Positions 3,045 through 59,513 of a stretch of DNA of 64,000 bases are shown here, piece after piece. Each line of letters opens with the position of its first letter. Positions within the stretch are counted from its first letter, which is position 1. A program made the position numbers and the translations under genes. This stretch comes from Prevotella sp. (lineage in GTDB: Bacteria > Bacteroidota > Bacteroidia > Bacteroidales > Bacteroidaceae): positions 44,484 through 108,483 of the forward strand of contig JBNMLZ010000001.1 in NCBI GenBank assembly GCA_050875085.1, read 5' to 3'. The notes beneath the pieces were generated by a model. That model made no database searches. It was not told the origin of the DNA and worked only from the letters and a program-made list of their open reading frames with translations.

Positions 3045-3076
3045 ATCAATGAGTTTATTATGCAAATTTACAAAAT

Positions 3077-3190
3077 ATATCACATATAGACTATATATTT
3101 CATCATATTTATATCACCTATAGACTATATATTTTACCGTATTTATATCACCTATAGACTATATGTTTCACCATATTTATATCACCCATA
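3077..3190. repeat. 34-bp tandem repeat, about 3.3 copies (ATATCACCTATAGACTATATATTTCACCATATTT)
   Basis: Directly visible immediately upstream of the ATPase -7 promoter box. Confidence 0.85.
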
Positions 3191-15948: not shown

Positions 15949-15950
15949 CC

Positions 15951-16053
15951 GGAACGGCGGACTCCCGTCCGCCGCACTGCACCCTCCCGGAACGGCGGAC
16001 TCCCGTCCGCCGCAAAACCCCCTCAACAGAACGGCGGACTCCCGTCCGCCGCA
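15951..16053 (+). repeat. Three direct copies of palindrome GGAACGGCGGACTCCCGTCCGCCGCA (family D)
   Basis: Copies at 15951, 15989 and 16029; period about 38-39 bp. Confidence 0.9.
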
Positions 16054-16093
16054 AAACCAATCCCCCAACCCTATAAATATAAAGAAAAAGCAA

Positions 16094-17032: not shown

Positions 17033-17039
17033 CGAAAAG

Positions 17040-17111
17040 ATTAACGGATAATTAACGGGCATTAACGACTATATTTTTTAGGTCGTTAATGCCCGCTAAT
17101 TATCCGTTAAT
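17040..17111. terminator. Long hairpin built from ATTAACGG units between convergent genes
   Basis: ATTAACGGATAATTAACGGGCATTAACGAC pairs with GTCGTTAATGCCCGCTAATTATCCGTTAAT. Confidence 0.7.
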
Positions 17112-17136
17112 TATTTTGTTAATTATTAATGTTCTC

Positions 17137-22312: not shown

Positions 22313-22345
22313 TTGTATTTTGTTTTTAGTTATTATTTATTATTT

Positions 22346-22460
22346 ATCCGTAGCGGAGGTCTCCGGCCTCCGCAGAAAGCAGATATTGGCAATAACATAA
22401 ATTGACATATTGCCAAGTAAATGATGGTTGCAGCGGAGGCCGGAGACCTCCGCCACGGAT
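22346..22460. repeat. REPIN-like inverted pair, family A (CCGTRGCGGAGGTCTCCGGCCTCCGC)
   Basis: Inverted arms around an AT-rich spacer; abuts the TBDR stop codon. Confidence 0.92.
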
Positions 22461-25247: not shown

Positions 25248-26465
25248 ATGAACAACTCCAACTCATCCAATTCAAAGCTAACACTCATCCCCGTGATGGC
25301 GGCATTCTTCACCATGGGATTTGTCGACCTCGTGGGCGCAGTGTCAAACAACATGCAGGAAGACTTCGGGCTTAGCGACTCGGCAGCCAACTTCTTCCCC
25401 TCGCTCGTGTTCTTCTGGTTCCTCATTTTCTCCGTGCCCACGGGCATGTTGATGAACCGCATCGGACGCAAGAAGACAGTGCTCCTTTCTATCATCATCA
25501 CCACACTGGCTGTCTTCCTGCCACTCTTCGACAGTTTCATGCCGTCGCAGCAGAGCCAGCTCTGGCTGATGTACATCTCGTTCTCGCTGCTCGGCATCGG
25601 CAACGCCATCATGCAGACCAGCATCAATCCGCTCGTGACGATGATTGTGAAAGGCCATCTCGCCTCGACACTCACCTTCGGACAATTCGTCAAGGCGATA
25701 GCCTCGTTCATCGCTCCACTCATCGCGGCATGGGGCGCCACGACCACCGCTCCCATACTCGGACTCTCATGGCGCATCCTCTTCCTCCTCTTCTTCATCA
25801 TCGGCATGATTGCCACGCTGTGGCTCGGCATGACCCACATCGAGGAGGAGCCTATCGAAGGCAAGGCGTCAGGCTTCATCGACTGCATCAAGATGCTCGG
25901 CTCACCCATCATCCTACTCTCTTTCCTCGGCATCATGTGTCATGTGGGCATCGACGTGGGCACCAATGCCGTGGCTCCCAAGATTCTCCTTGAGCGCATC
26001 GGCGGCGAGGGCGACACACTCAGCATGTTTGAGTATGCCACGAGCATCTACTTCGCCTTCCGCACACTCGGCTGCTTCACTGGCTCAATTATCATGCGCC
26101 GATTAAACATCCGCGTGTTCTTCACCGTCATAGTATTGATGATGGGTCTCGCAATGGTGGGCTTCGTCTTCGGCACCGAGAAGTGGGAACTCTGGGCAGC
26201 CATCGCTCTCGTGGGCTACGGCAACAGCAACGTGTTCTCCATCGTGCTCTCGCAGGCTCTGCTGTCGGCACCTGAGAAGAAGAACGAGGTCAGCGGACTG
26301 ATGATTATGGGACTCTTCGGCGGCACCGTCTTCCCGCTCGTCATGGGATTCGCAAGCGACGCCGCCAAGACTGCCGGTGCACAGTATCCACAGGTGTGGG
26401 CCGCTGTGGTAATGGCAGTGGGAGTGGGCTATTTGCTGACGTATGTAACAAAGGTGAAACAGTAA
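25248..26465 (+). CDS. MFS sugar (fructose) permease
   Basis: FFTMGFVDLVG, LMNRIGRKKT, about 12 TM segments; promoter TAACTTTG at 25196-25203. Confidence 0.88.
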   Translation: MNNSNSSNSKLTLIPVMAAFFTMGFVDLVGAVSNNMQEDFGLSDSAANFFPSLVFFWFLIFSVPTGMLMNRIGRKKTVLLSIIITTLAVFLPLFDSFMPSQQSQLWLMYISFSLLGIGNAIMQTSINPLVTMIVKGHLASTLTFGQFVKAIASFIAPLIAAWGATTTAPILGLSWRILFLLFFIIGMIATLWLGMTHIEEEPIEGKASGFIDCIKMLGSPIILLSFLGIMCHVGIDVGTNAVAPKILLERIGGEGDTLSMFEYATSIYFAFRTLGCFTGSIIMRRLNIRVFFTVIVLMMGLAMVGFVFGTEKWELWAAIALVGYGNSNVFSIVLSQALLSAPEKKNEVSGLMIMGLFGGTVFPLVMGFASDAAKTAGAQYPQVWAAVVMAVGVGYLLTYVTKVKQ

Positions 26466-26742
26466 GCCCCTCCCCCTCGCCGCCTTTGGCGGCTCTTGCC
26501 CCTCCCCTTAGGGAGGGGAGTGAGATGCTTTTACTGGTGACATTTATGGCATCATATATAGATTTATTTATGGCATCATATATAGATTTATTTAAAACAT
26601 TATACATAGCTTTATTTAAGGCATTGTACATAACAATAATATTTTAACAACCCAATAACAAAAAAAAACACCCATCGCCACACATTACTCCCCTCCCTAA
26701 GGGGAGGGGCAGAGCCGCCAACGGCGGCTGGGGGTGGGGCTT
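26464..26742. repeat. Family B inverted pair enclosing four 24-bp tandem repeats
   Basis: Arms 26464-26522 and 26687-26742; ATTTATGGCATCATATATAGATTT units at 26542-26634. Confidence 0.9.
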
Positions 26743-26748
26743 ATAATT

Positions 26749-27634: not shown

Positions 27635-27861
27635 AACTGGGAGAGGGGGCGCCTCGCCCCGGCATACTTAACTGGGAAAGGAGGCGCCCTCGCCTCCGGC
27701 ATTATAACTGGGAGCGGAGGCGCCTCGCCTCCGGCATTATAACTGGGAGCGGAGGCGCCCTCGCCTCCGGCATCATAACTGGGAGCGGAGGCGCCTCGCC
27801 TCCGGCATGGCAATAATACAATCTTTGCGTGTCGGGGGCGAGGGCGCCCCCTCTCCCAGTT
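27635..27861. repeat. Family C array: five direct 35-36 bp palindromic units plus one inverted unit
   Basis: AACTGGGAGCGGAGGCGCC(C)TCGCCTCCGGC at 27635, 27670, 27706, 27741, 27777; inverted copy 27833-27861. Confidence 0.92.
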
Positions 27862-28016
27862 ATTTTTTACACACTACTCGATTATATTATTGGCTCTTGG
27901 TTGGATAATGCTCAACATTTTTTTGATTTTTGATTTAGATTTGCCAAAATAGCTGTATATTTGTGGCTAATTATAAACCAATTAGGTGTGTCTAAAAGAA
28001 TATCCAGCCAAACCCG

Positions 28017-33088: not shown

Positions 33089-35521
33089 TTATTTAGCTAT
33101 GATGTCAATTGTTTTCTTCAGTCCACGCTTGCTGTCGGTGATGGTGAGCGTGGCTTTTCCTTTCTTGCCGTTGCTCTGCACCACAACCACGAGCTGACCG
33201 CTGAACAGCTTCATTTCCGGATTGGTGAACGGTTGGAGCGAGGTGGCGTCGCCGTTGCAGGTGGCGCGGAACGTGGCGGCTCCCGATACGGCAAACGTTA
33301 GGTCGTCGTCCACGGTTGGGCAGAACGTGCCGTTCTTGTCCTGGGTTGAGACGGTGATGAAGGCGAGGTCGTTGCCGTCGGCTGTTATCTCCTTGCGGTC
33401 AGCCTCAACCACGAGAGCCACGGGGTCGGATGCGGTGCGCACTGTCTCGGTGGCTACCGCCTTGCCGTCGTAGTCGTAAGCCACAACCTTCAGTTCACCC
33501 GGCTCATACTTCACGTTGTTCCAGCGTAGGCGGTAGCGGTCGAGTCGCGTGTTGGGATTCTTGATGATGCGTCCCTGGCTCTTGCCGTTTACGAACAGCT
33601 CGGCGCTGGGATAGTTGGTGTAGCAATACACGGGGGTCACCTCGCCCTCGCGTCCAGGGAATGTCCAGTGGGGCAGAAGGTGAAGGGTTGGCGAGTCCTT
33701 GCGCCAGTGCGAGCGGTAGAGCCAGTAGCGGTCTTTGGGCAGTCCGGCAAGGTCGCAGATGCCGAAGTAGCTTGAGCGCGACGGCCAGTACTCGTCGTAG
33801 GGCGTAGGCTCACCGAGGTAGTCGTAGCCAGTCCACACGAACTCGCCGATGGTGTAGTCGCGGTCGTCCTGCATCTGCCAGTCGTCGTCGGGCAGGTTGC
33901 TCCACGAGCAATACTCCACGTCGTACGAGGAGCATTGTCCGTCGGCATATACCTTGGAGTCGCTTGGCTCAACGGGGAACTTGTATACTCCGCGTGAGGA
34001 AACAGTCGATGCCGTCTCTGAACCAAGCAGGAAACCTTGCGGAAGCTGACGTATGTTGTTGTCGTACTTATGCACGCGGTAGTTGAAGCCCGGCACGTCC
34101 ATCACCTGGGCGAAACCCGACTTCAGAGCGTCCTCGGCGCGGTCCATTCCCTGGGTCACGGGGCGTGTGGGGTCAAGGCGGTGGCAGATGTCCTGCAGGT
34201 GCTTGGCGATGTCGCGACCCTCGGTGCTCCACTGTTCCGGAATCTCGTTGCCAATGCTCCACATCACGATAGACGGATGGTTGCGGTGGTTGCGCACGAG
34301 GTTCTCTATGTCCTTGTCGCTCCACTCCTTGAAGTCCTTTGCATAGCCGTTCTTGCATTTTGGGTAAATCCACATGTCGAAGCTCTCCGCCATGACCATC
34401 ATGCCCATCGAGTCGCACACCTCCATCTGCCATGTCGACGGCATGTTGTGCGCCGTGCGTATGGCGTCGCATCCCATCTCCTTCATCGTGCGTATCTGTC
34501 GGATAAGGGCAGCCTTGTTGATGGCAGCACCCAACGGACCGAGGTCGTGGTGCAGGCAAACGCCTTTAATCTTTCTTGAAACGCCATTCAACTGAAAGCC
34601 GTCATACTGCGACACCTTTACGGTGCGTATGCCCACCTTCTGCTGCGTCTCGTCGATGAGTTTGTTGTTGCGGTAGAGACGCGTGACGAGCTTGTATAGA
34701 TAAGGTGACTCGGGCGACCACAGCTGCGGGTTGTCAATGGAGAGTTTTTTGATGGCATTGAAATCCGCGTCGAAGTCGCCGTAGCGGTATTGCGCCACAA
34801 CATTGCCATTGCTGTCGACGAGGCGGTTCTCGATGGAGAGAGTCTTGTCCACGTTGTTCACGTTGGTGCAGATGCTTATCTCCGCCTTGCCGTCGGCTAT
34901 CGACTCTGTGCGGAAATAGCTGCCCCACGGATTAATGGTGGCAACATCGGCATTGGTTACGAGCTGCACGGGGCGGTAGAGACCGCCGCCCGGATACCAG
35001 CGCGAACTCTCCTCGCGGTTGTTGAGGCTCACTGAAATCTCGTTCTGTCCCTTCTTCAGATAAGGCGCGGCGTCAACGCGGAAGGCGTTGTAGCCATACG
35101 CCCAGTGTCCGGCAAGATGACCGTTGACATACACGTGTGGGTCTGCCATGGCGCCGTCGAACTCCAGAATGGCAGTCTTCGGCAATTTGGTTATGTTGAC
35201 CGTGGTCTTATAGAAGCCGCGTCCAATCCAAGGCAGCGCGCCCGAGCGTCCCGACTTCTCCGACTTCTCGGTCTCGCCGTTCTGCTCGATGGCAACATAC
35301 TGCAAGTCCCATTTCTTGTCGAATGGTCCGCTGATGGCCCAGTCGTGGGGAATGACTACAGACTGGTAGTTAAGACTGTCGCGCGAGAACTGCCACTGCT
35401 TGAGGTTGATGGTCTGGCGCTGGGCGGAGGCGGGAAGGAAGAAGAGCCCTACCCCCAGTCCGCACAGCGTGCGGACTATTCCCCTCCCCGGTAGGGAGGG
35501 GAGTAATATGTGGTGTTTCAT
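33089..35521 (-). CDS. GH2 beta-galactosidase
   Basis: PHDWAI, SRWYPGGGLYR, GVCLHHDLG, NHPSIVMWSIGNE, GSET, WTGYDYLGEP. Alternative start at 35527. Confidence 0.93.
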   Translation of the reverse strand: MKHHILLPSLPGRGIVRTLCGLGVGLFFLPASAQRQTINLKQWQFSRDSLNYQSVVIPHDWAISGPFDKKWDLQYVAIEQNGETEKSEKSGRSGALPWIGRGFYKTTVNITKLPKTAILEFDGAMADPHVYVNGHLAGHWAYGYNAFRVDAAPYLKKGQNEISVSLNNREESSRWYPGGGLYRPVQLVTNADVATINPWGSYFRTESIADGKAEISICTNVNNVDKTLSIENRLVDSNGNVVAQYRYGDFDADFNAIKKLSIDNPQLWSPESPYLYKLVTRLYRNNKLIDETQQKVGIRTVKVSQYDGFQLNGVSRKIKGVCLHHDLGPLGAAINKAALIRQIRTMKEMGCDAIRTAHNMPSTWQMEVCDSMGMMVMAESFDMWIYPKCKNGYAKDFKEWSDKDIENLVRNHRNHPSIVMWSIGNEIPEQWSTEGRDIAKHLQDICHRLDPTRPVTQGMDRAEDALKSGFAQVMDVPGFNYRVHKYDNNIRQLPQGFLLGSETASTVSSRGVYKFPVEPSDSKVYADGQCSSYDVEYCSWSNLPDDDWQMQDDRDYTIGEFVWTGYDYLGEPTPYDEYWPSRSSYFGICDLAGLPKDRYWLYRSHWRKDSPTLHLLPHWTFPGREGEVTPVYCYTNYPSAELFVNGKSQGRIIKNPNTRLDRYRLRWNNVKYEPGELKVVAYDYDGKAVATETVRTASDPVALVVEADRKEITADGNDLAFITVSTQDKNGTFCPTVDDDLTFAVSGAATFRATCNGDATSLQPFTNPEMKLFSGQLVVVVQSNGKKGKATLTITDSKRGLKKTIDIIAK
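35445..35505. repeat. Family B arm inside the GH2 signal peptide
   Basis: AGCCCTACCCCCAGTCCGCACAGCGTGCGGACTATTCCCCTCCCCGGTAGGGAGGGGAGT. Confidence 0.85.
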
Positions 35522-35530
35522 ATACATAAT

Positions 35531-35664: not shown

Positions 35665-35695
35665 GCCGGGGGCGAGGGCGCCCCCGCTCCCAGTT
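35665..35695 (-). repeat. Single family C unit overlapping the GH53 stop codon
   Basis: GCCGGGGGCGAGGGCGCCCCCGCTCCCAGTT. Confidence 0.85.
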
Positions 35696-36830
35696 ATAGG
35701 GCTTCGCTAAAGCATTTCATTGCCTTCGTCACCTTTCCGGTATGGTTGTTGAACAGTCCGCGGTTTATCCAGCTTCCAATCACTTTCTTTCCGCTTTCGT
35801 TCTCTTCGGGGAACCACCAGTAGAGTCCTTTCACCCGTGGGTGACGCTTGAGCATGGTCACGAGTTCGGTGGTGAACTGCGCCTGACCGTCCTCCGATAT
35901 CGGGTAGAGGTCGGAATATTCATCGGCTGACTTCGCCCAGCGGTCGTTGTCGTGCGAATAGTAGAATGCTGTCTCGACAATCATGATGTCCTTCTTCGGA
36001 AAGTCGACGGCGAGAGAGTCGAGCGTGCGCGAGAGGTTGGGGATGTCCTTGTGCCACATGGGATAGTAGGACAGGCCGATGATGTCGTAGTCGACGCCAT
36101 GGGCGGCGAGTCGGCTGTAATAATTCTTCGTGGCGTCCCAGTCGCCGGCGTGCTCGGTGTGGATGATGACGCGCGCCTCGGGGCACACCTCACGGCACGC
36201 GCGCACGCCACTCTTGATGAGGTCGGTCAGCACGTCCCAGCCTTCTTCCTTCATCGGGTCAACCTTTGCCGTGGGCCACAACATGCCGAACGTTATTTCG
36301 TTGCCCACCTGTATGAGGTCGGGCGCGCAGCCATTGGCTTTCAGATGGCGCAAGGCGCGGGCTGTGTGGGCATACACCGAGTCGCAGAGCTGTGCCGGTG
36401 AGCATTTCGCCCAAGCCTTTGGAGTGAACTGCTTGCCGGGGTCTGCCCATGTGTCGGAGTAGTGGAAGTCGAGCATTAGGTTCATGCCTGCCTTCTTTAT
36501 CTGCTTGCATAGAGGCGTGATGTAGCCCAAATCCTGGCATACGCCCTCGTCCTTGTTCTCGCCGGGCGCGTCCTCGGGATTTACAAAGAGACGCACGCGG
36601 GCGGCATTCCAGTTGTTAGCCTTGGCGATGTCGAGGAAGGGGCGAGCCTTGCCACGCTCGTCGAGATACTTGGTGCCACGCTGCTCGTAGGTGGGCAGGA
36701 GGGAGATGTCGCCACCGAGGAGAGATACTTGGGCGGAAGAGGACAGGGAGAAGAGCCCTACCCCCAGTCCGCACAGCGTGCGGACTATTCCCCTACCCAA
36801 GAGGAAGGGGAGTGACATGTGATGTTTCAT
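35694..36830 (-). CDS. GH53 endo-beta-1,4-galactanase
   Basis: GGDISLL, RVRLFVNP, DFHYSDTWADPGKQ, QVGNE, GLSYYP, IVET. Confidence 0.92.
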   Translation of the reverse strand: MKHHMSLPFLLGRGIVRTLCGLGVGLFSLSSSAQVSLLGGDISLLPTYEQRGTKYLDERGKARPFLDIAKANNWNAARVRLFVNPEDAPGENKDEGVCQDLGYITPLCKQIKKAGMNLMLDFHYSDTWADPGKQFTPKAWAKCSPAQLCDSVYAHTARALRHLKANGCAPDLIQVGNEITFGMLWPTAKVDPMKEEGWDVLTDLIKSGVRACREVCPEARVIIHTEHAGDWDATKNYYSRLAAHGVDYDIIGLSYYPMWHKDIPNLSRTLDSLAVDFPKKDIMIVETAFYYSHDNDRWAKSADEYSDLYPISEDGQAQFTTELVTMLKRHPRVKGLYWWFPEENESGKKVIGSWINRGLFNNHTGKVTKAMKCFSEAL

Positions 36831-36972
36831 ACGCTTATTGTTTACACTCTTGGTTGTTGGGTATAATATATTTCCTACAGATTGCTTATATATGTTTTAT
36901 GCAACTTATTACATTTCACTCCCCTCCCCTTTCGGGGAGGGGAAAGCCGCTTTAGCGGCTGGGGGAGAGGCT
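36754..36972. repeat. Family B inverted pair; left arm in one GH53 signal peptide, right arm in the other GH53 C-terminus
   Basis: Arms 36754-36815 and 36917-36972. Confidence 0.88.
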
Positions 36973-38010
36973 ATTGAGCGCTGCGGTCGGTTTCCCGTTT
37001 GCGTCGAACGCGCCCATGCTGTAGCCGTTCCAACCGCCGTAGCACTCCGGCTCCCAGTAGAAGATGCCCAGACACTCCGCCTTAGCCTTGCATCCGTCAA
37101 CCATCTTCTTCATCATGGCTTCGGCATTGTCAGAGTCCCACGACATGCCAATCTCGCAAATCATGACCTTCGTGTTGTAGCGTGAGGCGAGTGTTGAGAT
37201 GTTGTTGAGGCAGTTGTCGGTGGCGGTCTGCCAGTTGTCGTCGTCGGGATAGAGCGACATGCCTATGACGTCCCACTTGGCGCCGTGCGACTTCAGTCCG
37301 TCGAACAGCCATGTGTAGTGGCCGAGGTCGTCGCCCTTGTCGAGGTGGATGATGCACTGCGCGTCGGGGTAAACCGACTTGGCGGCTTCATATCCAGCGT
37401 TGTTGAGCGCCACGTAGTTGTCGATGTTGTTCAGATTGCTGCCCGACACAAGGCCGAGCGGCCACAGTATGCCCGTGTTCGACTCGTTGCCTATCTGCAC
37501 CCACTCCACGTCGATGCCGTTCTGCTTGAGATATGTCAGCACGTCCTTGGTGTGGTCAGCCACGGCAGCCTTCATCTTCGTGAGGTCGTCCTTGAAGTCG
37601 GTCCAGCTTGCGGGGATGTTCTGCTTGCCGGGGTCAGCCCATGAATCGGAGTAGTGGAAGTCGATCATGATGCGCTGACCGAGACTCTTGGCGCGGAACG
37701 CCTTGGCGAGCACGTCCTGCTTGCCGCACCAGCCACCGGCAGGATTCACCCACACGCGCAGACGGATGGCATTTACGCCGAGGTCGCGCAGGAGTGTCAT
37801 GCAGTCCTGCTCGGAACCGTTGGCATTATAGAACTTCTTGCCGCTGGCTTCCATTTCGGTGAGCCAGCTTACGTCGGCACCCTTGGCAAAGCCAGTCATG
37901 TCGTAGGTGGGTTCCTGCTGTGGGGTTGTGTTGTCGTCGTCGCTGCAAGCTGAGAGTGAGAAGAGAGCGAGGGCAGCTATGAGAAGGGGTTTGATGATAT
38001 TTTTTTTCAT
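36952..38010 (-). CDS. GH53 endo-beta-1,4-galactanase, surface lipoprotein
   Basis: Lipobox LSAC, KGADVSW, RLRVWVNP, DFHYSDSWADPGKQ, QIGNE, YWEP. Start at 38010. Confidence 0.92.
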   Translation of the reverse strand: MKKNIIKPLLIAALALFSLSACSDDDNTTPQQEPTYDMTGFAKGADVSWLTEMEASGKKFYNANGSEQDCMTLLRDLGVNAIRLRVWVNPAGGWCGKQDVLAKAFRAKSLGQRIMIDFHYSDSWADPGKQNIPASWTDFKDDLTKMKAAVADHTKDVLTYLKQNGIDVEWVQIGNESNTGILWPLGLVSGSNLNNIDNYVALNNAGYEAAKSVYPDAQCIIHLDKGDDLGHYTWLFDGLKSHGAKWDVIGMSLYPDDDNWQTATDNCLNNISTLASRYNTKVMICEIGMSWDSDNAEAMMKKMVDGCKAKAECLGIFYWEPECYGGWNGYSMGAFDANGKPTAALNSLSPSR

Positions 38011-38020
38011 AATGATAAGA

Positions 38021-38245
38021 AGCCCCACCCCCAGCCGCGGAGCGGCTTTCCCCTCCCCTTAGGGAGGGGAGTGATGTGTGGAGGTGGATTGGGTTTATTG
38101 GTTTAAGTTAATGTTTTCTTATTGTAAAATTAAAATGTGTATATAGGTGTAACAATTTTATGCCTTTATCATATGCAATCTACACATATTACTCCCCTCC
38201 CTAAGGGGAGGGGAAGCCGCGCTACCGCGCGGCGGGGGAGGGGCT
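38021..38245. repeat. Family B inverted pair
   Basis: Arms 38021-38074 and 38191-38245; the right arm overlaps the SusE-like C-terminus. Confidence 0.9.
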
Positions 38246-39634
38246 GTACCCCCATTTCTTCGTCTTCAAATCCACTGTCACCGTGACGGTTTCTCCCGCT
38301 TTCGCACCGTCGTCGAACCAGATGTTCCATGCTCCGACATCGGCGGAGAGTGTGAAGATGTCGCTCGGGTCGGAACCGTAGATGATGGAATTCTCGCGGT
38401 CGGCAATACGGAAGTTCTCCCAGTCGGCGGTGAGCGTGTAGGTGCCGCTGTAGGTGGTGTCGCCTGTCTTGGCGAGGCGTGCAAGTTCCACGGACACGTC
38501 GTCCTTGCTCACCATGAACAGCTCGGCAGGATATTTCGTCTCGGGCTCGTCGGTGGCGTTGAAGTCAACCTTGCCTTCAACGACAGAGTAGTTCAAGTAG
38601 CCACTGCCGTCAGCCTCGACGATGATGGTGTAGGTGCCAGCCTTGGCGATGGTGATGCCCGTTGAGGCTGATGCCTGGGTCAGATGTCCGTTGGCTGCGG
38701 CGAAGAGCAGCGTCTTGTCGTTGGCGTAGTCGGTGCGTGTGGTGGTGTTGTACTCCTTGGCGTCAGCGTCGATGGCGACGGTCTGGTTGTCAGCGGTGGT
38801 GGTGATGTAGTAGCCCCACTGCTGTCGCTTTGAGTAGTAGGTCATGTCGTTGCCGTTAGCCTTGAGCTGCGCGAGCAGCGTGGCGCTCCACTCCAGTTGC
38901 TTTGTGTCCACCTTGACGTACCATGCTCCGGCACCGTCGGCAAACCAGCAGTTCCATGCGTCGGCAGAGTTGGATATGTCGAAGGCGTGGCCGTCGATGG
39001 CGGCGTTGCCCCATGTGTCGCCCGAGTATTCGTAGAACCAGCAGTTGAGCCATGCCGTGGCATTCATGTAGCCGGTGTATACACCGTCGGCTTCGGGCGA
39101 GTGTAGGTAGGCAATAGTGTCGGTCTTGTTGGAGGCGAGCACGGCGAGCTTGGTCATGTCGACGAAATAGGGCTTCACGCTCACGGCGCACACGTTGCTG
39201 TACTGCGGCTCCATGTTGTCGCCAGCCTTGGTCTTGATGCGGAAGTAGATTTTGCCTTCGGTGTTGACGTTGATGCCGAGGGTCTGGGCGAGCGTGTTAA
39301 GCTCTGTTCCGGTGTAGGCTTTTGAGAGCGTTGAGGCTGCCGACTCGGTGGCGCTGGCGAAATTCTCGGATGCAGAAGCCTCAACATAGGTCTTCAGCAT
39401 GTTGTCGGGTACGGGACTGTTCTCGTCGCTCGACAGGAGCGTGGGGTTCTTCCATGCCAGTTCAAGCACCACGGTGGCGCGCTGGCTGATGTCGAGGTCT
39501 ACCTTCGACGCGGTGGCGATGAGGTCGGACGGTGCCATGCCGTCAACGTATACTGTGTCGCCGTCGTTGTTGCAGCTTGCGCATAGAACGGCAAGACAAA
39601 GATACAGAAATATTTGGCTTAAAAGCTTTTTCAT
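38222..39634 (-). CDS. SusE-like surface glycan-binding lipoprotein
   Basis: Lipobox CASC, ELNTLAQTLG..GKIYFRI..YSN SusE N-domain, Trp-rich modules; lies downstream of susD. Confidence 0.8.
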   Translation of the reverse strand: MKKLLSQIFLYLCLAVLCASCNNDGDTVYVDGMAPSDLIATASKVDLDISQRATVVLELAWKNPTLLSSDENSPVPDNMLKTYVEASASENFASATESAASTLSKAYTGTELNTLAQTLGINVNTEGKIYFRIKTKAGDNMEPQYSNVCAVSVKPYFVDMTKLAVLASNKTDTIAYLHSPEADGVYTGYMNATAWLNCWFYEYSGDTWGNAAIDGHAFDISNSADAWNCWFADGAGAWYVKVDTKQLEWSATLLAQLKANGNDMTYYSKRQQWGYYITTTADNQTVAIDADAKEYNTTTRTDYANDKTLLFAAANGHLTQASASTGITIAKAGTYTIIVEADGSGYLNYSVVEGKVDFNATDEPETKYPAELFMVSKDDVSVELARLAKTGDTTYSGTYTLTADWENFRIADRENSIIYGSDPSDIFTLSADVGAWNIWFDDGAKAGETVTVTVDLKTKKWGYSPSPAAR

Positions 39635-39676: not shown

Positions 39677-39891
39677 ACTGGGAGCGGGGGCGCCCTCGCC
39701 CCCGAAGAAATATATTAAAGACCGGAGGCGAGGGCGCCTTCTATCCCAGGTAAAGAGCGGGGGCGAGGGCGCCTCCTATCCCAGGTAAAGACCGGGGGCG
39801 AGGGTGCCTTCTATCCCAGGTAAAGACTGGAGGCGAGGGCGCCCCCTATCCCAGGTAAAGGTCGGGGGCGAGGGCGCCCCCGCTCCCAGTT
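39677..39891. repeat. Family C array: one unit plus five inverted 35-bp tandem units
   Basis: 39677-39704, then CGGGGGCGAGGGCGCC..CTATCCCAGGTAAAGA x5 ending on the susD stop codon. Confidence 0.92.
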
Positions 39892-41464
39892 AGTATCCCT
39901 CGTTCTTGAGGTTCGGGTTTGCTGTGAGGTCGGTTGACGGTATTGGGTAGATGTTGTACTTGTTGTCGACAGCCATGCCGTCCTTGGTGCCGCCCTTCCA
40001 TTCCCATATATAGGAAGATGTGGTGAACTCACCAAAGCGTATGAGGTCGGTGCGGCGGTAGCCCTCCATGTAGAGCTCGCGTGCGCGCTCGTCGATGATG
40101 AACTCCTTCGTGAGCTGGCTTTCCTTGATGTTGCCGCTATCGTCGCCGTAGGCACGCTTGCGCAGGTCGTTGATGTAGGCTACAGCCTGGGCGCGCGAGC
40201 CCCCCTCACCGCCGCGAACCACAGCCTCGGCATACATCAGATATACATCGGCAAGGCGGAAGAGCGGGAAGTCGGTGGCTGCTCCGTAGGATGCAGTGTT
40301 GGAAGCTGTCTCGCCGTTGTCCTTCAGATTAGTCCACTTGGTGAATAGATAGCCGTCCTGCTGGTTGGTGAAGTCATCGATATACTGGTTCTGTCCGTCG
40401 GTGAAGAACATGAAGCGGTGGTCCTTGGCAGGGTCGGTGAACTTTGCCGTGAGATTGCCGCGTGAGCGGAAGTTGCCCCAAGGCGACTCCACGCCGATGG
40501 AGTGGCTGTCCTCAGACTTCGATGTGCTGCTTGCGGAACCGCAGATAAGATATGTGGTTGAGCCGTAGGTGATGAGATGCTCGGGATCCTGCGGCAGGGC
40601 GAAGATAATCTCGTTGGTGCGCTTGTCGTTGTCGGCGTTGAAGAGCTGGGCGTAGTCGGCGTTGAGCGTGTAGCCCTCGCTGATGGCGCTGTTGCAAGCC
40701 TTTATGCATTCGGTGTAGTGTGGTGTGCCGGTGTACACCTCGCTGTTGAGGTAGAGCTTGGCGAGCAGCGTGTAGGCGGCGCCGCGCGATGCCTCGCCAT
40801 AAGGACAGTCGGCTTTCGGGGCGAGGTCGGCCACGCAGTCGTTAAGCTCCGACTCTATGAACTCGAAGGTCTGCTGCGGTGTGTAGCGCGGCGGAACGTA
40901 GGAGCCGATGGGGTCGTTCTCGCTGACGAACGGGATGTTGCGGAACAGGTCGAGCGCATGATAATAGAACAGCGCGCGCATGAAACGCGCCTCTGCCTTG
41001 TAGCGGCGCAGCTTCTGCTGGTCGGCGTCGGAGAACGACGAGAGCTTTGAGTCGGAGCAGTTGCGCAGGAACTCGTTGCAGAGCGTGATGTTGTAGTAGA
41101 TGCGGTAGTACATGTCGGACACCCATGTGTCGGTGGCGTCCCACTTCATGAACGACACGTTGCTCAGGTCGTCGCCCGTGAGCCATGTGTAAGCCATCTC
41201 GTCGGTGGGCGCTTCCTGGAGGTTGAGATAGGTGCGCATGTAGTTCTCGCCGTGGTTGGAGGCGTAGTCAACACCCGACGACTCCTGTCCGGTGGCGGTC
41301 ATCGATGCATAAATCTTGCCGAGCACCGACTCATAGTTTTGCAGGGATGTATACACCTGCTCGGATGTTGTCTCGGTATGTGGGTATTGGTTGAGGTCGT
41401 CGGTGCACGCGGTGTTGAGCGTCAGGGCGGTGGCGACGAGGCAACCGAGGAAATATTTGTTCAT
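39890..41464 (-). CDS. susD: SusD/RagB glycan-binding lipoprotein
   Basis: Lipobox NTAC, AEARFMRALFY, FRLADVYLMYAEA, ERARELYMEGYRRTDLIRF, YPIP..NPNL. Confidence 0.95.
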   Translation of the reverse strand: MNKYFLGCLVATALTLNTACTDDLNQYPHTETTSEQVYTSLQNYESVLGKIYASMTATGQESSGVDYASNHGENYMRTYLNLQEAPTDEMAYTWLTGDDLSNVSFMKWDATDTWVSDMYYRIYYNITLCNEFLRNCSDSKLSSFSDADQQKLRRYKAEARFMRALFYYHALDLFRNIPFVSENDPIGSYVPPRYTPQQTFEFIESELNDCVADLAPKADCPYGEASRGAAYTLLAKLYLNSEVYTGTPHYTECIKACNSAISEGYTLNADYAQLFNADNDKRTNEIIFALPQDPEHLITYGSTTYLICGSASSTSKSEDSHSIGVESPWGNFRSRGNLTAKFTDPAKDHRFMFFTDGQNQYIDDFTNQQDGYLFTKWTNLKDNGETASNTASYGAATDFPLFRLADVYLMYAEAVVRGGEGGSRAQAVAYINDLRKRAYGDDSGNIKESQLTKEFIIDERARELYMEGYRRTDLIRFGEFTTSSYIWEWKGGTKDGMAVDNKYNIYPIPSTDLTANPNLKNEGY

Positions 41465-53149: not shown

Positions 53150-55216
53150 TTACTTCACTACAACTTTCTTGCCATTCACGACATAAATGCCCTTGGCTAC
53201 GCCTTGCAATGCCTCCTGCATGGAAACGGCTGTCGCGAAACGGCGCACTGTCCTGCCGTCGAGCGAGACGACGGTTGTAGGAACAGCCGACTGAATGCCG
53301 CCGGCAACCACACCTGCAATGGCTGTGGGCTGCTCACTGGTGACATCCTTCACGAGATAATGTCCCTGGTCGTCGGTTTCAGGCTGGATTTCAAAGTAAG
53401 AAGTGGCTGTGACACCGCTCACGTTGACAGTCTGCACACCATCCTTCTCGGCAAACACGAAGTTCACGTAGTCGGTAGGAGTGTTGATGTTGAATGTCTT
53501 GGCATACCACTGCTTGCCGTTCTGCGTGGTTGCGGTCGTCACGTTGTCGCCCGGCCACTTAGTGTTTGACGGCTTATGGCTGTCATCACCGCCCCATGTC
53601 CAGAAGTAGGCATTGTTCCAGCCCACCTTTTCTGTATTAACATACACCGACATCGTGTAAGGCTTGAAGCTCTTCACCTCGTAGACGCGGGTCTGCACGC
53701 CACTCACGCTGCCACCTGCAAGCACTCCAACTTTAAGCGTGGTATTGCCGTAAGGGATGGTTATAGCGCCACCATTTGCAACCTTGGCGCTCCCGGCAGT
53801 AGGCTCAGTGCCATCGAGAGTATACACAAGCTGTGCTCCGGAATTGGCAGACACGGCACGCAACGTAACCGACGGCTCGTTGTAGTAGACACCCGACGGC
53901 AGCGACGGCCATGCCGTCTCCTGCGAGGTCTCGATAAAGTAGCGCCAGTGGTAGCCCTCGGCAGCGAGAGCGTAGCCCGACGGGGCGTTGTACTTGTTGG
54001 CTGTTGTGCCCACGGCGGCAAGCAGCTTGCCATTGGTGCCCGTTGAGGTGAACACGAAACGGCCGGTCGTGCTCTCCTCACGCTTGTAGGCACTCTGGTT
54101 GTTGATGCCGACGAGGTTGCGCAAGAGAATCATCTGTTTGATGTCCTGTTTGCAGTCAATCCAATGCTTGTAGAACACGCACGGCGTGCCTGGCATACCG
54201 AGTATGTAGGCGTTGGCGGCGAGGGTGTCCTTGCGTAGCGGGTCCTGCTCGGAGCCTTCGCGCTTCTCGGTGTCGTGGTTCTCAACGAAAGTCACGGCAT
54301 AGCGCTTGTAGGTGTTGTTGGTTGCCAATCCACCGTCGGAGAGTTTTGCCCAATTGCCGTTGTTGGCGGCGTCGCGCACGGTGTAGCGTATGGTGAAGTC
54401 GAATGTGGCAGACTGTATCTTGCCGTCCACCTTGGTAGCCTGCAACCACTCCATGAGAACCGACTTGTTGCCATCCCAATACTCGCCTACAGAGAACTCA
54501 GGCTTGGCATCGGCATTGTACATGCCGGTGAACTTGCCGGCATAGCCCTTCGTCATGTCGTAGCGGAATCCGGCATAGCCAAAATCGTTGAGGAGCATGT
54601 GGAGATAGTCCTTGACCGTGTTCTGCACGTTGGCGGAGTTGTGGTCGAGGTCGCGCATACCGCTCCAGTCCTCACCCGTGTCCTCATTGGCACTGAGGCT
54701 CACACCCTGTTGCTTGGCAGCGGCAGCGGCCTTGCCACCGTCGTCATTGGCGCACACGTCGGCAGCGGTCATGGTGTAGGTCTTGCCATTATAGGTCTCT
54801 ACGGGGAAGTCGAACCAGTCCTTTATGGTACCGCGGTGGTTAATCACCACGTCGGCAATCGTGCCTATGCCTTTCTGCTTGAAAGTGTTAATCATCGAAC
54901 GGAGCTGCTGCTCAGAGCCGAACGACGAGTTGTAGTTGCTGAACCAGTAGAGGTCGTTGTAGCCCATCGACTTGCCGCCGCACGACGCGCTCTGCGGAAT
55001 CCACACGAGCTTGAAGTACGGTGCAAACTCATCTGCCTGTGCCTCAAGCTTTGTCCATGCAGAGGCATCATAGCTGTCCCAGTAGAAACCCTGGAGCATC
55101 ACACCCTGATATTTCTCCGGCCAACCTTGGGCTGAAGCGGGCAGGGCAAGAAGCCCTAACCCAAGTCCGCACAATGAGCGGGCTATAGTTTTATTGAATA
55201 TACGATTTGGTTTCAT
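53150..55216 (-). CDS. GH13 alpha-amylase with starch-binding module and T9SS-like CTD
   Basis: MLQGFYWD, DVVINH, GFRYDMTKG, VGEYWD, FVENHD; C-terminal KGIYVVNGKKVVVK. Confidence 0.9.
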   Translation of the reverse strand: MKPNRIFNKTIARSLCGLGLGLLALPASAQGWPEKYQGVMLQGFYWDSYDASAWTKLEAQADEFAPYFKLVWIPQSASCGGKSMGYNDLYWFSNYNSSFGSEQQLRSMINTFKQKGIGTIADVVINHRGTIKDWFDFPVETYNGKTYTMTAADVCANDDGGKAAAAAKQQGVSLSANEDTGEDWSGMRDLDHNSANVQNTVKDYLHMLLNDFGYAGFRYDMTKGYAGKFTGMYNADAKPEFSVGEYWDGNKSVLMEWLQATKVDGKIQSATFDFTIRYTVRDAANNGNWAKLSDGGLATNNTYKRYAVTFVENHDTEKREGSEQDPLRKDTLAANAYILGMPGTPCVFYKHWIDCKQDIKQMILLRNLVGINNQSAYKREESTTGRFVFTSTGTNGKLLAAVGTTANKYNAPSGYALAAEGYHWRYFIETSQETAWPSLPSGVYYNEPSVTLRAVSANSGAQLVYTLDGTEPTAGSAKVANGGAITIPYGNTTLKVGVLAGGSVSGVQTRVYEVKSFKPYTMSVYVNTEKVGWNNAYFWTWGGDDSHKPSNTKWPGDNVTTATTQNGKQWYAKTFNINTPTDYVNFVFAEKDGVQTVNVSGVTATSYFEIQPETDDQGHYLVKDVTSEQPTAIAGVVAGGIQSAVPTTVVSLDGRTVRRFATAVSMQEALQGVAKGIYVVNGKKVVVK

Positions 55217-55238: not shown

Positions 55239-57200
55239 TTAGTTCAGGCTCAACACCATCACGCCACGTGGCTGCAACTTCACGTTCTTCGTCAAGTCTA
55301 TCTTGTGGCCAGTGAGGATGTTGGTTGCCTCGGTGCGGCCGTTGATAATCTCGGCATAACGCTCCACCTGCATCTCGGCAGACTTCGACGTGCCGTTGAT
55401 GACGGTCATCACAGCCTTGCCATCGAGAGTGCGCGCCACTACATACACGCCCTTGACAGGTATAAACTGCGTCTGCTTGCCTTTAGAGATTATGTCGTTG
55501 CCCTGACGCCAGTGGAGCAGACGGCTTGTGAAGCGATACATGTCCTGCTCTGCCTTGGTGCGCTCCGACTTGTTGAAGGCGTTGTGCTTGTCGCCAGGGA
55601 AACCGCCGGGGAAGTCGCGGCGCACGTTGCCGTCGGTCACCTGCTTAGTGCCGTTCATCATTATCTCGGTGCCGTAGTAGAGCTGCGGTATGCGGTTGAC
55701 GGTGAGCAGCAGGGCGAGAGCCTGCTTGAGGGCGAGCGAGTCCTGGCCCTCGCCGAGGAAGCGGTCGGTGTCGTGGTTCTCGATGAACGCCATGACGTTG
55801 CTCGGGTTTACATAGAGATAGTCGTAGCACAGCGAGTTGTAGATGCGGTTGTAGCCTTTCCACCAGTCGTCGGTTTCCTCCGACTTGGCCTGGTTGAGCT
55901 TGTCGAAGAACGAGAAGTCCATGACGGTCTTCAGGTTGGAGTTGATCTTTGCGAGTGGCGAGTCCTTCTGCCATGCGGCTGTGTAAGCAGGCTCAGTCAC
56001 CCACGTCTCGCCAACGGTGTTGAAGTTGGGATATTCGGTGTTGAGCACTTCCATCCAGTGCGCCATGCCACGGCGGTCGGCATAAGGATAGGTGTCCATG
56101 CGTATGCCGTCGATGCCTACGGTCTCAATCCACCACTCAGAGTTCTGGATGAGGTAGGTCATGAGATGCTGGTTGCGCTGGTTGAGGTCGGGCATTGTAG
56201 GCACAAACCAACCATCGACCGTCTCGTGCAGGTCTACCTTAGAGGCGTAGGGGTCGAGCACGGGCGTGAGCTTGTAACTCGTCTGGAGATACTTGTCGTT
56301 GGTCATCTGGTCGCCGTCCATCGTCTTTGTCTTCACGGCTTTGGCTTGGTTTTCGGGAGCGAGCCATTCGGGAGTGTTGAACCAGTCCTTCGTAGGCATG
56401 TCCTTCACCCAAGGATGCTCGAAGCCACAATGGTTGAAAATCATGTCCATCACCACCTTCAAGCCCTTCTTGTGGGCATCCTGCACGAGCTGGCGGTAGT
56501 CGGCGTTGGTGCCGAAACGCGGGTCGACGCGGTAGTAGTCGGTCGTGGCATAGCCGTGGTAGGTGCTGTTCTTGCCGTGGTCGGGCGAGTTGTTCTCAAG
56601 CACTGGGGTGAACCAAAGGGCTGTCACGCCGAGGTCGGTGAAGTAGTCGAGGTGCTGGCGTATGCCCTCAAGGTCGCCGCCATGACGGAGCGACGGCTCA
56701 CTGCGGTTGACTGTGTAGGCGTTCATACCCTTCACGTTGAGGTTCTTGCCACTTGAGGCGAAGCGGTCGGGCATGAGCATGTAGAGCACGTCGGCATTGG
56801 TGAAGCCCTTGTGGTCTTCGCCACGCATGTCGCGCGCCTTGAGCTCATACTTCACGCTGGTCTTGCCCTTCGGTGCGCGGAACTGCAGGTTCATCGTGCC
56901 GGGCTGCGCGTCCTTCACGTTCATGTAGACAAGCAGGTAGTTGGGCGAGTCGAGACGCACGAGCGAGTCGATGCGCACGCCGGGATAGTCGGTCGTGACC
57001 TCGGCAGAACGGATGTCCTTGCCGTAGACCATGAGCTGCACCTGCGGGTTCTTCATGCCAACAAACCAGTTGGCAGGGTCGATGCGGTCGATTTTTTGAG
57101 CTGCGTTCATATTGATGGGAAGTAAAAGCCCCACCCCCAGCCACAAAAGTGGCTTTACCCCTCCCCTTAGGGAGGGGAGTGAAATGTGCTTGAATTTCAT
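55239..57200 (-). CDS. susA: GH13 neopullulanase/cyclomaltodextrinase (SusA-like)
   Basis: IDPANWFVGM, LMPDRF, YHGYATTD, DMIFNH, GIRMDT, GETW, ENHD. Confidence 0.9.
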   Translation of the reverse strand: MKFKHISLPSLRGGVKPLLWLGVGLLLPINMNAAQKIDRIDPANWFVGMKNPQVQLMVYGKDIRSAEVTTDYPGVRIDSLVRLDSPNYLLVYMNVKDAQPGTMNLQFRAPKGKTSVKYELKARDMRGEDHKGFTNADVLYMLMPDRFASSGKNLNVKGMNAYTVNRSEPSLRHGGDLEGIRQHLDYFTDLGVTALWFTPVLENNSPDHGKNSTYHGYATTDYYRVDPRFGTNADYRQLVQDAHKKGLKVVMDMIFNHCGFEHPWVKDMPTKDWFNTPEWLAPENQAKAVKTKTMDGDQMTNDKYLQTSYKLTPVLDPYASKVDLHETVDGWFVPTMPDLNQRNQHLMTYLIQNSEWWIETVGIDGIRMDTYPYADRRGMAHWMEVLNTEYPNFNTVGETWVTEPAYTAAWQKDSPLAKINSNLKTVMDFSFFDKLNQAKSEETDDWWKGYNRIYNSLCYDYLYVNPSNVMAFIENHDTDRFLGEGQDSLALKQALALLLTVNRIPQLYYGTEIMMNGTKQVTDGNVRRDFPGGFPGDKHNAFNKSERTKAEQDMYRFTSRLLHWRQGNDIISKGKQTQFIPVKGVYVVARTLDGKAVMTVINGTSKSAEMQVERYAEIINGRTEATNILTGHKIDLTKNVKLQPRGVMVLSLN

Positions 57201-57312
57201 ATTTTCTCTTATTTTTTATATTATTCCCGTTCCCCCATACCCCACAAAGCATATTACTCACCTCCCTAAGGGGAGGGGAAAGCCGCCTTTGTCGGCGAGG
57301 GGGAGGGGCCTT
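57126..57312. repeat. Family B inverted pair; left arm encodes the SusA signal peptide
   Basis: Arms 57126-57182 and 57255-57312; susA ATG (57200) lies in the spacer. Confidence 0.9.
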
Positions 57313-59234
57313 TAATCATGTACAATCAGTGCCGACTGCGGAGCCACCGTCAGCGTAGTGCCATTGAGCAGTCCGATGCCGTTAGCATTCACCTTGCCGT
57401 TTGCCACAACCATGGTGTAGCTGCCCTCAGGCACATTGACGTTCTGCGGAGTCTTCTGCGAGTTGAGCACAACGATGATGTTCTTCCATGCGTCGCCTCC
57501 GGCGTTGTTCTTCAGTTGGTAAGCCACCACACCATTGGGAGCATTGAGGAACTCAAGATTCTTGCGCACCTCGTCGGCCGCCCCCATACGGAAGGCTGGA
57601 TGCTGCTTGCGGAGGGAGATAAGACCAGTGTAGTAGTCGAACACCTGCGGATAGCGCTTGAGGTTGTTCCAGTCGAGGCGGTTGATTGAGTCGGGCGACT
57701 TGTAGGAGTTGTGAACACCCTTCTTGTCGCGCAGCATCTCCTCGCCCGAGAGAATGAACGGCACACCCTGCGACGTGAGCACGGCGGTCTGCGCGAGCAG
57801 GTCGAGCCGTATCAGTTCGTCGTCGGTGATGTAGGGCACTGTGGCGCGCAGACGGTCGGTGAGGCACATGTCGTCGTGGCAACTCACATAGGCAATCATC
57901 TGCGACGGCTCATTGGTCCATGCCGCCTTGGAGTAGTTCACCTTCGTCATGTCAATCTGCGGATGCTGTATGGCACCCGCGATGCCGAACTTGATGCTCT
58001 CCTCCTGACCCGGCACGCCGACGAGGAAACCACCCTTCGTGTCGTCGGAGAACGGACCGCGCAGCGCGTCGCGCATGTCGTCGCAGAAAGCGCCGATACC
58101 GTTGAGCTGCTTGGTGTTTGCCTTCATCGCAAGCTTCTCCTGCGGATAGGCGCACGAGCCGGCGCTCCATCCCTCACCATATATATATATTGAGGGGTCA
58201 ATCTTGTCGACGGCAGCACGTATGTCGTTCATCGTCTCAATGTCGTGTACGCCCATGAGGTCGAAGCGGAAGCCGTCGATGTGGTACTCGTTAATCCAGT
58301 ACTCCACGCTTTCCTTCATGAACTCGCGCATCAAAGGTTTTTCCGATGCCGTCTCGTTGCCGCAACCGGAGCCGTCGGAGTATTTGCCCTCGGCTGTCTT
58401 GCGGTAGAAATAGTCGGGATATGTCTTCTGGAAGTTGGAGCCGTTGATGTCGAACGTGTGGTTATACACCACGTCGAGGATGACGCGTATGCCAGCCTTG
58501 TGCAAAGCCTGAACCATCTGCTTGAACTCGCGGATGCGCGCCTTGGGATCGGCGGCATTGGTTGAGTAGGAGCCTTCGGGCACGTTGTAGTTCACAGGGT
58601 CGTAGCCCCAGTTGTACTGCGGCACGTCGGGTTTCGACTCGTCAACCGACGCGAAGTCGAACGACGGCAGTATGTGTATGGCGTTCACACCGAGTCGGCG
58701 CAGATAGTCGATGGCGGCAGGCTCTGTGAGGGCGAGAAACTTGCCCTTGTGCTTTATGCCCGACGAGAGGTCAACGGAGAAGTCGCGGTGGTGAAGCTCA
58801 TATATCACGAGGTCGCACGGCGACTTCAGTGCCGGGCGCACATCGTCAGCCCACCCATCAGGGTCGGTGTCGCGCAAGTCGACGATGGCACCGCGCTTGC
58901 CGTTCACGCCTACAGCCTTGGCGAAAACGCCGGGAGTGACATCAGGCTTTGCCTGGTTGTAGACGCTGAACACGTAGAACTTGCCCTTGAGGTCGTTCTT
59001 TACGGTGAGTTTCCACTTGCCTGCGCCGATGCGTTTCATCGACTTCACTAGTTGCTTGGCAGCGTCGCCGTCGGTGTCGGTGAGCACGACATCCACTTTC
59101 TTCACATCGGGAGAAGTAATGAGGTTGAATGTTGTAGCCTTGGGCGAATACTCCACTTCGTTAAAGGTCTGCGCCAGTGCATGGTGGCAGGCGCAGGTGG
59201 TGAGAAGGGAGAGGAATAGGGTTCGGAGATTCAT
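57312..59234 (-). CDS. pulA: Type I pullulanase (GH13)
   Basis: YNWGYDP, DVVYNH, GFRFDLMG, YGEGW, YVSCHDD. Confidence 0.93.
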   Translation of the reverse strand: MNLRTLFLSLLTTCACHHALAQTFNEVEYSPKATTFNLITSPDVKKVDVVLTDTDGDAAKQLVKSMKRIGAGKWKLTVKNDLKGKFYVFSVYNQAKPDVTPGVFAKAVGVNGKRGAIVDLRDTDPDGWADDVRPALKSPCDLVIYELHHRDFSVDLSSGIKHKGKFLALTEPAAIDYLRRLGVNAIHILPSFDFASVDESKPDVPQYNWGYDPVNYNVPEGSYSTNAADPKARIREFKQMVQALHKAGIRVILDVVYNHTFDINGSNFQKTYPDYFYRKTAEGKYSDGSGCGNETASEKPLMREFMKESVEYWINEYHIDGFRFDLMGVHDIETMNDIRAAVDKIDPSIYIYGEGWSAGSCAYPQEKLAMKANTKQLNGIGAFCDDMRDALRGPFSDDTKGGFLVGVPGQEESIKFGIAGAIQHPQIDMTKVNYSKAAWTNEPSQMIAYVSCHDDMCLTDRLRATVPYITDDELIRLDLLAQTAVLTSQGVPFILSGEEMLRDKKGVHNSYKSPDSINRLDWNNLKRYPQVFDYYTGLISLRKQHPAFRMGAADEVRKNLEFLNAPNGVVAYQLKNNAGGDAWKNIIVVLNSQKTPQNVNVPEGSYTMVVANGKVNANGIGLLNGTTLTVAPQSALIVHD

Positions 59235-59252
59235 ATATAAAAAAAGAAGAAG

Positions 59253-59513
59253 AAGCCCCTCCCCCAGCCGCCAAAGGCGGCTTTCCCCTCCCCGTAGGAG
59301 AGGGGAGTGATGTGCGTTGAGGGGCTGAGGGAAGGCTATTGTGGTTTATTAATATTAATTATTGATATTCAATGAGAAATGACACGATATTGAGTGAAAT
59401 AACACTATATTAAGTGAAATGACACAATATTGGATGCCACTATTAGCAGCGCATACCACTCCCCTCTCATACGGGGAGGGGAAAGCCGCCCTTGGCGGCT
59501 GGGGGAGGGGCTT
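59253..59513. repeat. Family B inverted pair enclosing three 20-bp tandem repeats
   Basis: Arms 59253-59310 and 59457-59513; GAAATGACACNATATTRAGT units at 59376-59435. Confidence 0.9.

Follow-up and report, generated by a model that had tools for sequence, protein, structure and literature searches.

We report that one arm of a hairpin repeat, the repeat that also flanks DUF559 genes, is probably translated in frame at the head of SusA and of about ten other exported proteins of a Prevotella genome, where it has taken the place of the front part of a pre-existing signal peptide and become a predicted new one, likely after selection for hydrophobicity. The analysis is centered on a stretch of 64,000 nucleotides of this genome (hereafter, the window; contig JBNMLZ010000001.1, positions 44,484 to 108,483) and extends to the assembly as a whole (G000; 2.28 Mb, 65% complete) and to related genomes.

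Signal peptides turn over quickly between orthologues and the donors of new ones are seldom visible. In the sections of PMC5952966 that treat how signal peptides are gained and lost among orthologues, whole N-terminal regions are swapped and ISEScan detected no transposable elements or insertion sequences nearby; the case presented here differs from that part of the study in having a visible donor, a repeat below the size of an insertion sequence.

The SusA gene and its translated arm

The product of the gene at 55239-57200 matches the neopullulanase SusA in the PDB (9fyz; E 1.6e-174), and Pfam agrees with the SusA label. The N-terminus encoded by this open reading frame on the minus strand is MKFKHISLPSLRGGVKPLLWLGVGLLLPINMNAAQKID, and the elements that compose the locus are the following (arrows here and below mark the cleavage site):

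55239..57200, minus strand: SusA-type neopullulanase/cyclomaltodextrinase (GH13) gene, assigned from Pfam and PDB 9fyz
57099..57123, minus strand: rest of the SusA signal peptide, with the ancestral c-region INMNA↓A common to the empty-site orthologue
57124..57190, minus strand: translated arm (outer hairpin, inner hairpin and G-rich end), coding for SusA residues ~4-26, the predicted n/h-region
57191..57244, no strand: AT-rich spacer of the doublet, 54 nt
57198..57200, minus strand: predicted SusA ATG, within the A-rich spacer
57245..57313, plus strand: partner arm, complementary to the translated arm and adjoining the pullulanase stop codon

The original prediction, that the SusA N-terminus derives from one arm of an inverted pair with the ATG in the spacer and the partner arm retained, is borne out by the arms at 57124-57190 and 57245-57313. 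Both face outward with the ATG between them, and translation passes through one arm, a double hairpin of about 65 nt. Read in the same frame, the non-coding arm at 26463-26532 yields SLPSLRGGARAAKGGEGEGL. The compensatory pair reported for the SusA stem is also real: in the 3′ strand, a C-to-T change turns the usual CGG (Arg) into TGG (Trp), and the 5′ partner changes silently from CCG to CCA (Pro).

Start codons were scored with an initiation-context model trained on 250 genes of G000. The model mainly gauges A-richness, which is consistent with the initiation without Shine-Dalgarno sequences described for Bacteroidetes in the pertinent part of PMC6847099. The SusA ATG scores 16.5, against a genome median of 7.4 and a 95th percentile of 13.4; in-frame alternative starts score -12.1, -12.2 and -0.8, and each of them would leave no h-region. 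An assembly artefact was ruled out, since contigs from 4/4 runs (2 studies) span the arm-gene junction at 57018-57180 with 0-1 differences.

The repeat family

Arm profiles were seeded on eight window arms, excluding the signal-peptide copies, and then iterated. They identify 99 arms in G000 at E<=0.01 and 0 arms at E<=0.1 in the reversed genome, so the repeat family is not a product of chance. Each arm combines an outer C-rich/G-rich hairpin with a G-rich end and, in some copies, an inner hairpin. Most of them (74/99) are contained in 37 outward-facing pairs, or doublets, the two arms of which are inverted copies of each other, as in the terminal inverted repeats of a MITE. The doublet spacers (29-172 nt) are not homologous to one another, apart from chance matches in AT-rich sequence, the DUF559 genes and nested repeats that belong to another family. 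Direct repeats flanking the 35 of 37 doublets that were scored have a mean length of 1.5 nt, compared to 1.3 nt after shuffling (P=0.16), giving no sign of target-site duplication, and erosion could have erased old duplications. The GTAG/CGTC tag is absent from the stem foot, where the 20 most frequent 5′ flanks belong to the AGCATATT/CACATATC type, and Rfam returns 0 matches in the window.

Flanking genes are co-directional at 36/36 doublets with both flanks known (1045/1418 junctions in the background; P=1.7e-5), and the outer ends of the 99 arms nearly always touch gene ends. An automatic sort assigned 50 arms to gene tails, 22 to positions before a start and 26 to the inside of a gene head, with 1 unplaced. 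Manual re-sorting transferred to the second class three head cases with a native ATG behind the arm, removed two arms for which the next start was 135 and 465 nt away and included one gene missed by the caller, for a final tally of 24 translated heads and 23 uncaptured starts. Arm-like DNA is present in 58/401 genomes of the genus, G000 included. Three doublets of the window lie outside any translated head:

26463..26744, no strand: untranslated doublet between MFS and PfkB genes, with arms at 26463-26532 and 26678-26744
38018..38247, no strand: uncaptured doublet upstream of the native ATG of a GH53 lipoprotein
59251..59513, no strand: uncaptured doublet upstream of the native pullulanase ATG, with arms at the same site in genomes G481 and G482

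Several additional traits of the repeat landscape were observed. Upstream arms often encode the final codons of the gene before them, along with its stop (36908-36975, 38179-38247 and more than 12 other sites), generating C-termini such as SPSPSR. Some arms carry an extra hairpin-like insert in a loop (G000:C94:2659-2759, L128; similarly L261, L278 and L282), and the C94 insert is translated within a signal n-region. Short tandem duplications are frequent in doublet spacers (C27:4325-4568, C39:8806-9113, C115:12-273), which suggests spacers rebuilt locally instead of copied. Two further AT-rich elements, at window positions 3076-3190 and 17026-17125, are unrelated to the arm family: a tandem repeat of 34 nt and an inverted repeat of 44 bp.

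Genes headed by translated arms

Three more window genes had been put forward as carrying the repeat in their signal peptides, and two of them, GH2 and GH53, are indeed headed by full arms:

35442..35516, minus strand: translated arm, signal-peptide-specific variant, at the head of the GH2 gene 33089-35527
36751..36825, minus strand: translated arm, same variant as the GH2 copy, at the head of the GH53 gene 35694-36830
36908..36975, plus strand: partner arm of the GH53 doublet, overlapping the stop of the upstream GH53 lipoprotein gene
55126..55186, minus strand: segment of the amylase signal peptide similar to the 3′ half of the variant

The third gene, the amylase at 55151, shows no match to the arm models at E<=10, and its N-terminus aligns without gaps to four orthologous N-termini; on both counts we did not accept it as a fourth clear case. 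Its segment matches the GH53 copy at 79% over 61 nt. Given the gap-free alignment and the lack of an arm-model match, the amylase sequence may represent a native signal after partial conversion, or could even have donated the 3′ half of the variant.

The genome-wide profile scan for in-frame arms at gene heads, suggested as a check on the original prediction, upheld it, with 99 arms, about 24 translated heads and 11 predicted signals. With signal peptides judged by heuristics, and class labels and reading frames assigned by eye, the 24 heads comprise 11 predicted signal n/h-regions, 2 arms just after a native signal, 1 uncertain start and 10 extensions of non-exported proteins. The 11 captures are SusA, two GH2 enzymes, GH53, a TonB receptor, TolC, a PotD-like lipoprotein, an S41 peptidase, an AXE1 esterase, an FMN-binding protein and a lipoprotein without Pfam match; the non-exported proteins include Sir2, RecQ, ArgB and ABC subunits. 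Arms facing genes with a cleavable signal are captured at 11/13 sites, versus 10/31 for other genes (P=0.002; labels by eye, three special cases omitted).

Initiation context is poor at native ATGs located behind an arm (median -4.8, n=23). These are also more structured than captured upstream ATGs, the context of which has the same median as normal starts (7.4, n=21). The poor context and the structure together offer a plausible reason for the relocation of the start.

The arm-derived peptides have the makeup of signal peptides. Net charge ranges from +1 to +9 in 10/10 scored peptides (SusA +4), giving a basic n-region, and the best 10-residue hydropathy lies between 1.9 and 2.95 (SusA 2.53), compared with a 5th-95th percentile range of 2.08-3.38 in 65 native-like signals; the h-region of GH53, at 1.9, falls below the native 5th percentile of 2.08. 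The peptides are long, at ~28-50 residues versus a median of 21. Cleavage sites, or the lipobox in the case of PotD, are in register with those of orthologues (MNA↓AQK in SusA; A↓Q in GH2, GH53 and S41; LASC in PotD), and A↓Q cleavage is consistent with the Bacteroidetes Q-rule as given in the relevant passages of PMC5837995. On the basis of these sequence features, the arm peptides are predicted to act as export signals. A 41-position profile of nine arm-derived signals, too short to be informative, obtained only 4 weak matches among 1.84 billion proteins, all of them internal repeats in unrelated repetitive sequences. Among 20 other arm-bearing genomes screened, 11 show the ATG-plus-arm pattern, and the 30 of these loci that were retrieved include one clear cytoplasmic extension and 0 signal-peptide captures. 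Arm-to-signal capture may hence be specific to this lineage.

Empty sites and intermediate states in orthologues

The closest SusA orthologue (L165, genome G481) is 93.9% identical and sister to the G000 gene with support 100/99, in a tree of 34 rows from which two loci were left out. Its site consists of a 19-nt gap without the arm, its signal is the ordinary MKKLLLSAILLGGAINMNA, and its cleavage-region codons are the same as in G000. The arm models place an arm near the start in 0/108 other SusA loci. In P. merdae (L166), SusA has the partner arm together with a decayed short arm that serves as n-region before a native-looking h-region, and several other close SusA rows resemble decayed or contracted captures; in P0006, for which the evidence is from protein only, the arm still stands upstream of the native ATG. 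Capture states are interleaved in the tree and some rows are mosaic, so that recombination blurs the order of events and prevents a choice between the two possible histories, which are either several captures or one capture with reversions. By eye, the diverged signal-coding regions of two further sets of SusA orthologues (L036-L040/L168 and L043-L045/L167) contain 1-2 hairpins that are unlike the arm consensus.

Other captured genes were compared in the same way. Ordinary signals are found for GH53 in both G481 and G482 (2/2), for GH2 in G482, for S41 in G481 and G482, and for the TonB receptor in G481. The arm is decayed in the GH2 gene of G481 and apparently also in the S41 genes of G483 and G484. 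TolC is captured in G000 and G481, each with a different perfect inner stem. A motif screen for the arm signal flagged 0/120 GH53 homologues, and no orthologues of the C94 lipoprotein, the C98 GH2 or the C61 operon were found in the five closest genomes.

The orthologue comparison proposed for the original prediction thus gives the result expected under it, with the arm peptide absent from repeat-free N-termini and ordinary signals in its place for SusA, GH53, S41 and the TonB receptor. Because these close orthologues bear ordinary signals at empty sites, and because SusA keeps the ancestral cleavage region, the repeat replaced existing signals and did not create export. De novo gain of export was rejected, since the orthologues already have signals. 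The view of the palindrome as a repeatedly exapted Sec signal consequently holds as regards its recurrence as the n/h-region of predicted signals with the stem preserved, and fails as regards the origin of export.

Remodelling and possible copying of the captured arms

In the frame that ends in GL, mean hydropathy over the final 12 codons of the arm is 0.65-2.28 in nine signal copies (two others, in another frame, were left out). The 51 non-coding long arms average -0.52 and reach 0.62 at most (P=1e-6). The predicted shift of the coding copy toward hydrophobic residues is seen in 9/9 of these signal copies, each above every one of the 51, and persists when four related copies are merged to leave six lineages (P=4e-5). 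Acidic residues (D/E) occur in 0/9 signal copies, compared to 76% of the non-coding long arms. Hydropathy is unshifted in six long arms that head non-exported proteins (-0.88 to 0.55) and in the arm of lipoprotein C23, whose start is uncertain (-0.6). Reading frames assigned by eye at the 5′ end also differ, at 10/11 for signal and 2/10 for non-exported heads (P=0.002). The hydrophobic shift is likely the outcome of selection after capture.

One version of the arm recurs. The variant I/M-V/A-R-T-L/M-C-x-L-G occurs always in signal peptides of unrelated genes, at 4/4 matches in G000 and 1/1 in G481, with none in 400 other genomes of the genus. The GH2 and GH53 copies are 87% identical along 102 nt that begin at the start and continue through the cleavage site, even though the orthologues of GH53 have a c-region different from that of the G000 gene, which points to a putative copying of the whole signal from one gene to another.

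These data bear on an unlikely alternative, in which the repeat is simply a tolerated invader: arms drift into gene heads, stop-free frames survive, and the hydrophobic appearance reflects a survival filter on chance variants instead of adaptation and spread. Such a process would accommodate the 10 non-exported proteins also headed by an arm, the fact that the 3′ end of the arm reads LGVGL by default and the native h-region retained in decayed short-arm captures (P0005/L166 and the G481 GH2). It does not readily explain why signal copies lie outside the entire range of the 51 non-coding arms, why a single variant appears five times and only in signal peptides of unrelated genes, or the extent of the GH2/GH53 identity through a cleavage site that GH53 orthologues do not share.

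The palindrome itself has been preserved in the captured copies. Inner stems measure 6-9 bp in 10 signal copies versus 4-7 bp in comparison arms, and two inner pairs vary on both sides across seven aligned copies. The seven copies are related sequences, so shuffle counts for their alignment cannot be read as probabilities. Synonymous reshuffling reaches the observed inner stem with frequencies of 0-0.09, highest for SusA. The longer stems, the silent positions that follow amino-acid changes on the opposite strand and the predicted fold of the SusA doublet, a rod (-107.7 kcal/mol, z -7.0) whose loop lies close to the ATG, would all fit hairpins selected as mRNA regulators, either as a long rod formed by the two arms, with the start codon inside its loop, or through local stems that pause ribosomes and aid targeting. 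We consider this reading improbable, given that non-coding arms with varied stem sequences are equally paired, that GH53 and PotD have a broken outer hairpin in which no perfect stem exceeds 4 bp, that pairing is lost in older orthologous captures (L041/L042), and that palindrome correction by template switching yields the same pattern without selection on RNA.

An annotation artefact, with true starts downstream of the arms and arm peptides never made, gains some credence from the ~23 other arms just upstream of a native ATG, where longest-ORF calling would over-extend some genes (e.g. P0006), as the relevant portion of PMC3733652 cautions, but is highly implausible in view of the lack in SusA, GH2, the TonB receptor, TolC and PotD of a downstream ATG that leaves a signal peptide, the normal scores of the upstream ATGs (median 7.4, n=21) and the remodelling of the arm peptides as expected of coding sequence.

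DUF559 and a proposed course of events

Both DUF559 genes of G000 (2/2) lie between outward arm pairs, and the arm-flanked gene is a candidate for the autonomous form of the element. These intact genes (G000:C38:4169-4773 and C8:33454-34130; L031, L032) are co-oriented with their host genes. The only PDB match of the DUF559 protein is 3hrl, 'Endonuclease-Like Protein'. DUF559 is present in 31/81 sampled genomes of the order; from 29 other loci, 27 could be aligned to the query, and 18 of these 27 have, by eye, similar hairpins on both sides. At 10/29 loci (L136, L139, L140, L141, L143, L145, L147, L154, L160, L161) DUF559 lies in frame inside a long ORF and is mostly flanked by hairpin arms; seven of the hosts are class I tRNA synthetases, two are DNA methylases and one is a DUF7149/DUF7814 protein. 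The possibility that the new ATG of SusA is the DUF559 gene's own start was set aside, its sole trace being 14 nt of flank similarity shared by the SusA and C38 spacers. G000 also holds three Y1_Tnp (RAYT-like) genes (L033, L034 and L035, on C110, C18 and C53), each flanked by another REP family (3/3); these three families are likewise found in the window, at 22345-22460, 27635-27863, 39681-39893 and 15949-16063.

We propose that capture proceeds as follows. Outward arm pairs occupy junctions at which the genes are co-directional, abut gene ends with their outer ends, and leave the native ATG behind a G-rich arm, in the poor and structured context recorded above, which would put it at a disadvantage relative to spacer ATGs with normal scores. 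A spacer ATG that came into frame would then take over and the native start would be lost. Cytoplasmic proteins would thereby acquire a Pro/Gly tail, and cleavable signals would withstand deeper erosion provided that the arm supplied a basic n-region and an h-region. Selection would subsequently account for the observed removal of acidic residues and addition of hydrophobic ones. Template switching or recopying can maintain palindromes, and strand-to-strand correction or recopying of this kind may have kept the inner palindrome perfect. Gene conversion between arms could have moved the adapted version to other secreted genes, with DUF559 as the candidate enzyme for nicking or moving the arms.

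A more ambitious version of this proposal is conceivable, though we advance it only tentatively. The DUF559-linked repeat might be a domesticated, portable signal-peptide cassette, with its adapted variant copied among unrelated exported genes by the machinery with which the repeat itself nicks and converts, machinery that would also keep the palindrome. A selfish element would then serve as a dedicated signal-swapping system, and might continually seed, refresh and abandon ordinary-looking signals across Prevotellaceae.

Relation to known systems

The original prediction knew of no palindrome-derived signal peptide. This part of it does not stand, as the precedent is already published: in Delihas 2007 (PMC2759123) and a review (PMC2229807), the RU-2/YPAL repeat of Yersinia is described in YPO1552, a putative protein and the one main example. 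The Prevotella arms differ from RU-2 in that some 11 conserved proteins are involved, orthologues with empty sites exist, a native signal has been replaced, the hydrophobic remodelling is measured and one variant is common to several genes.

Two further repeat systems invite comparison. Like the RPE of Rickettsia, compared here by description from parts of PMC2229807 and PMC10969869, the arms are palindromic repeats that are both intergenic and in frame in conserved genes, being translated at about 24 gene heads. As those parts describe them, RPE add whole hairpins of 105-150 bp to proteins, whereas in Prevotella a single arm of ~65 nt from a pair is read, at gene ends, and displaces native sequence, including start codon and signal. 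With the REPIN/RAYT system, as portrayed in the consulted part of Bertels and Rainey 2011 (PMC3116915), the arms share inverted doublets of short palindromes with a spacer, a long hairpin and repeats flanking a small nuclease-like gene. What the arms flank here, however, is a DUF559 gene instead of one for a Y1 transposase; in addition, the spacers have no relationship to each other and the arms enter genes. A MITE would resemble the doublets in its inverted arms, but neither target-site duplication nor a conserved internal sequence copied as a unit is present. By analogy, the system may be said to work like an RPE/REPIN hybrid; we have kept it out of both families because it shows no cognate RAYT gene, tag or target duplication.

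Literature searches, with most subscription journals and supplements outside their scope, returned nothing on DUF559-flanking repeats or on repeat-derived signals in Prevotella, and the portions of PMC3733652 and PMC3184786 that they covered give no account of either.

Significance

The arms have a practical bearing on annotation. Gene callers over-extend some ORFs at arms and correctly extend others, so Prevotella N-termini near arms need to be checked case by case. The results further point to a repeat-plus-DUF559 system that was not found described in those searches. A single clade displays the donor, the empty site, the intermediate states and the direction of selection, outlining a route, open to testing, by which non-coding selfish DNA becomes a functioning export signal, and suggesting that, in this lineage, repeat DNA is being reshaped into reusable export tags.
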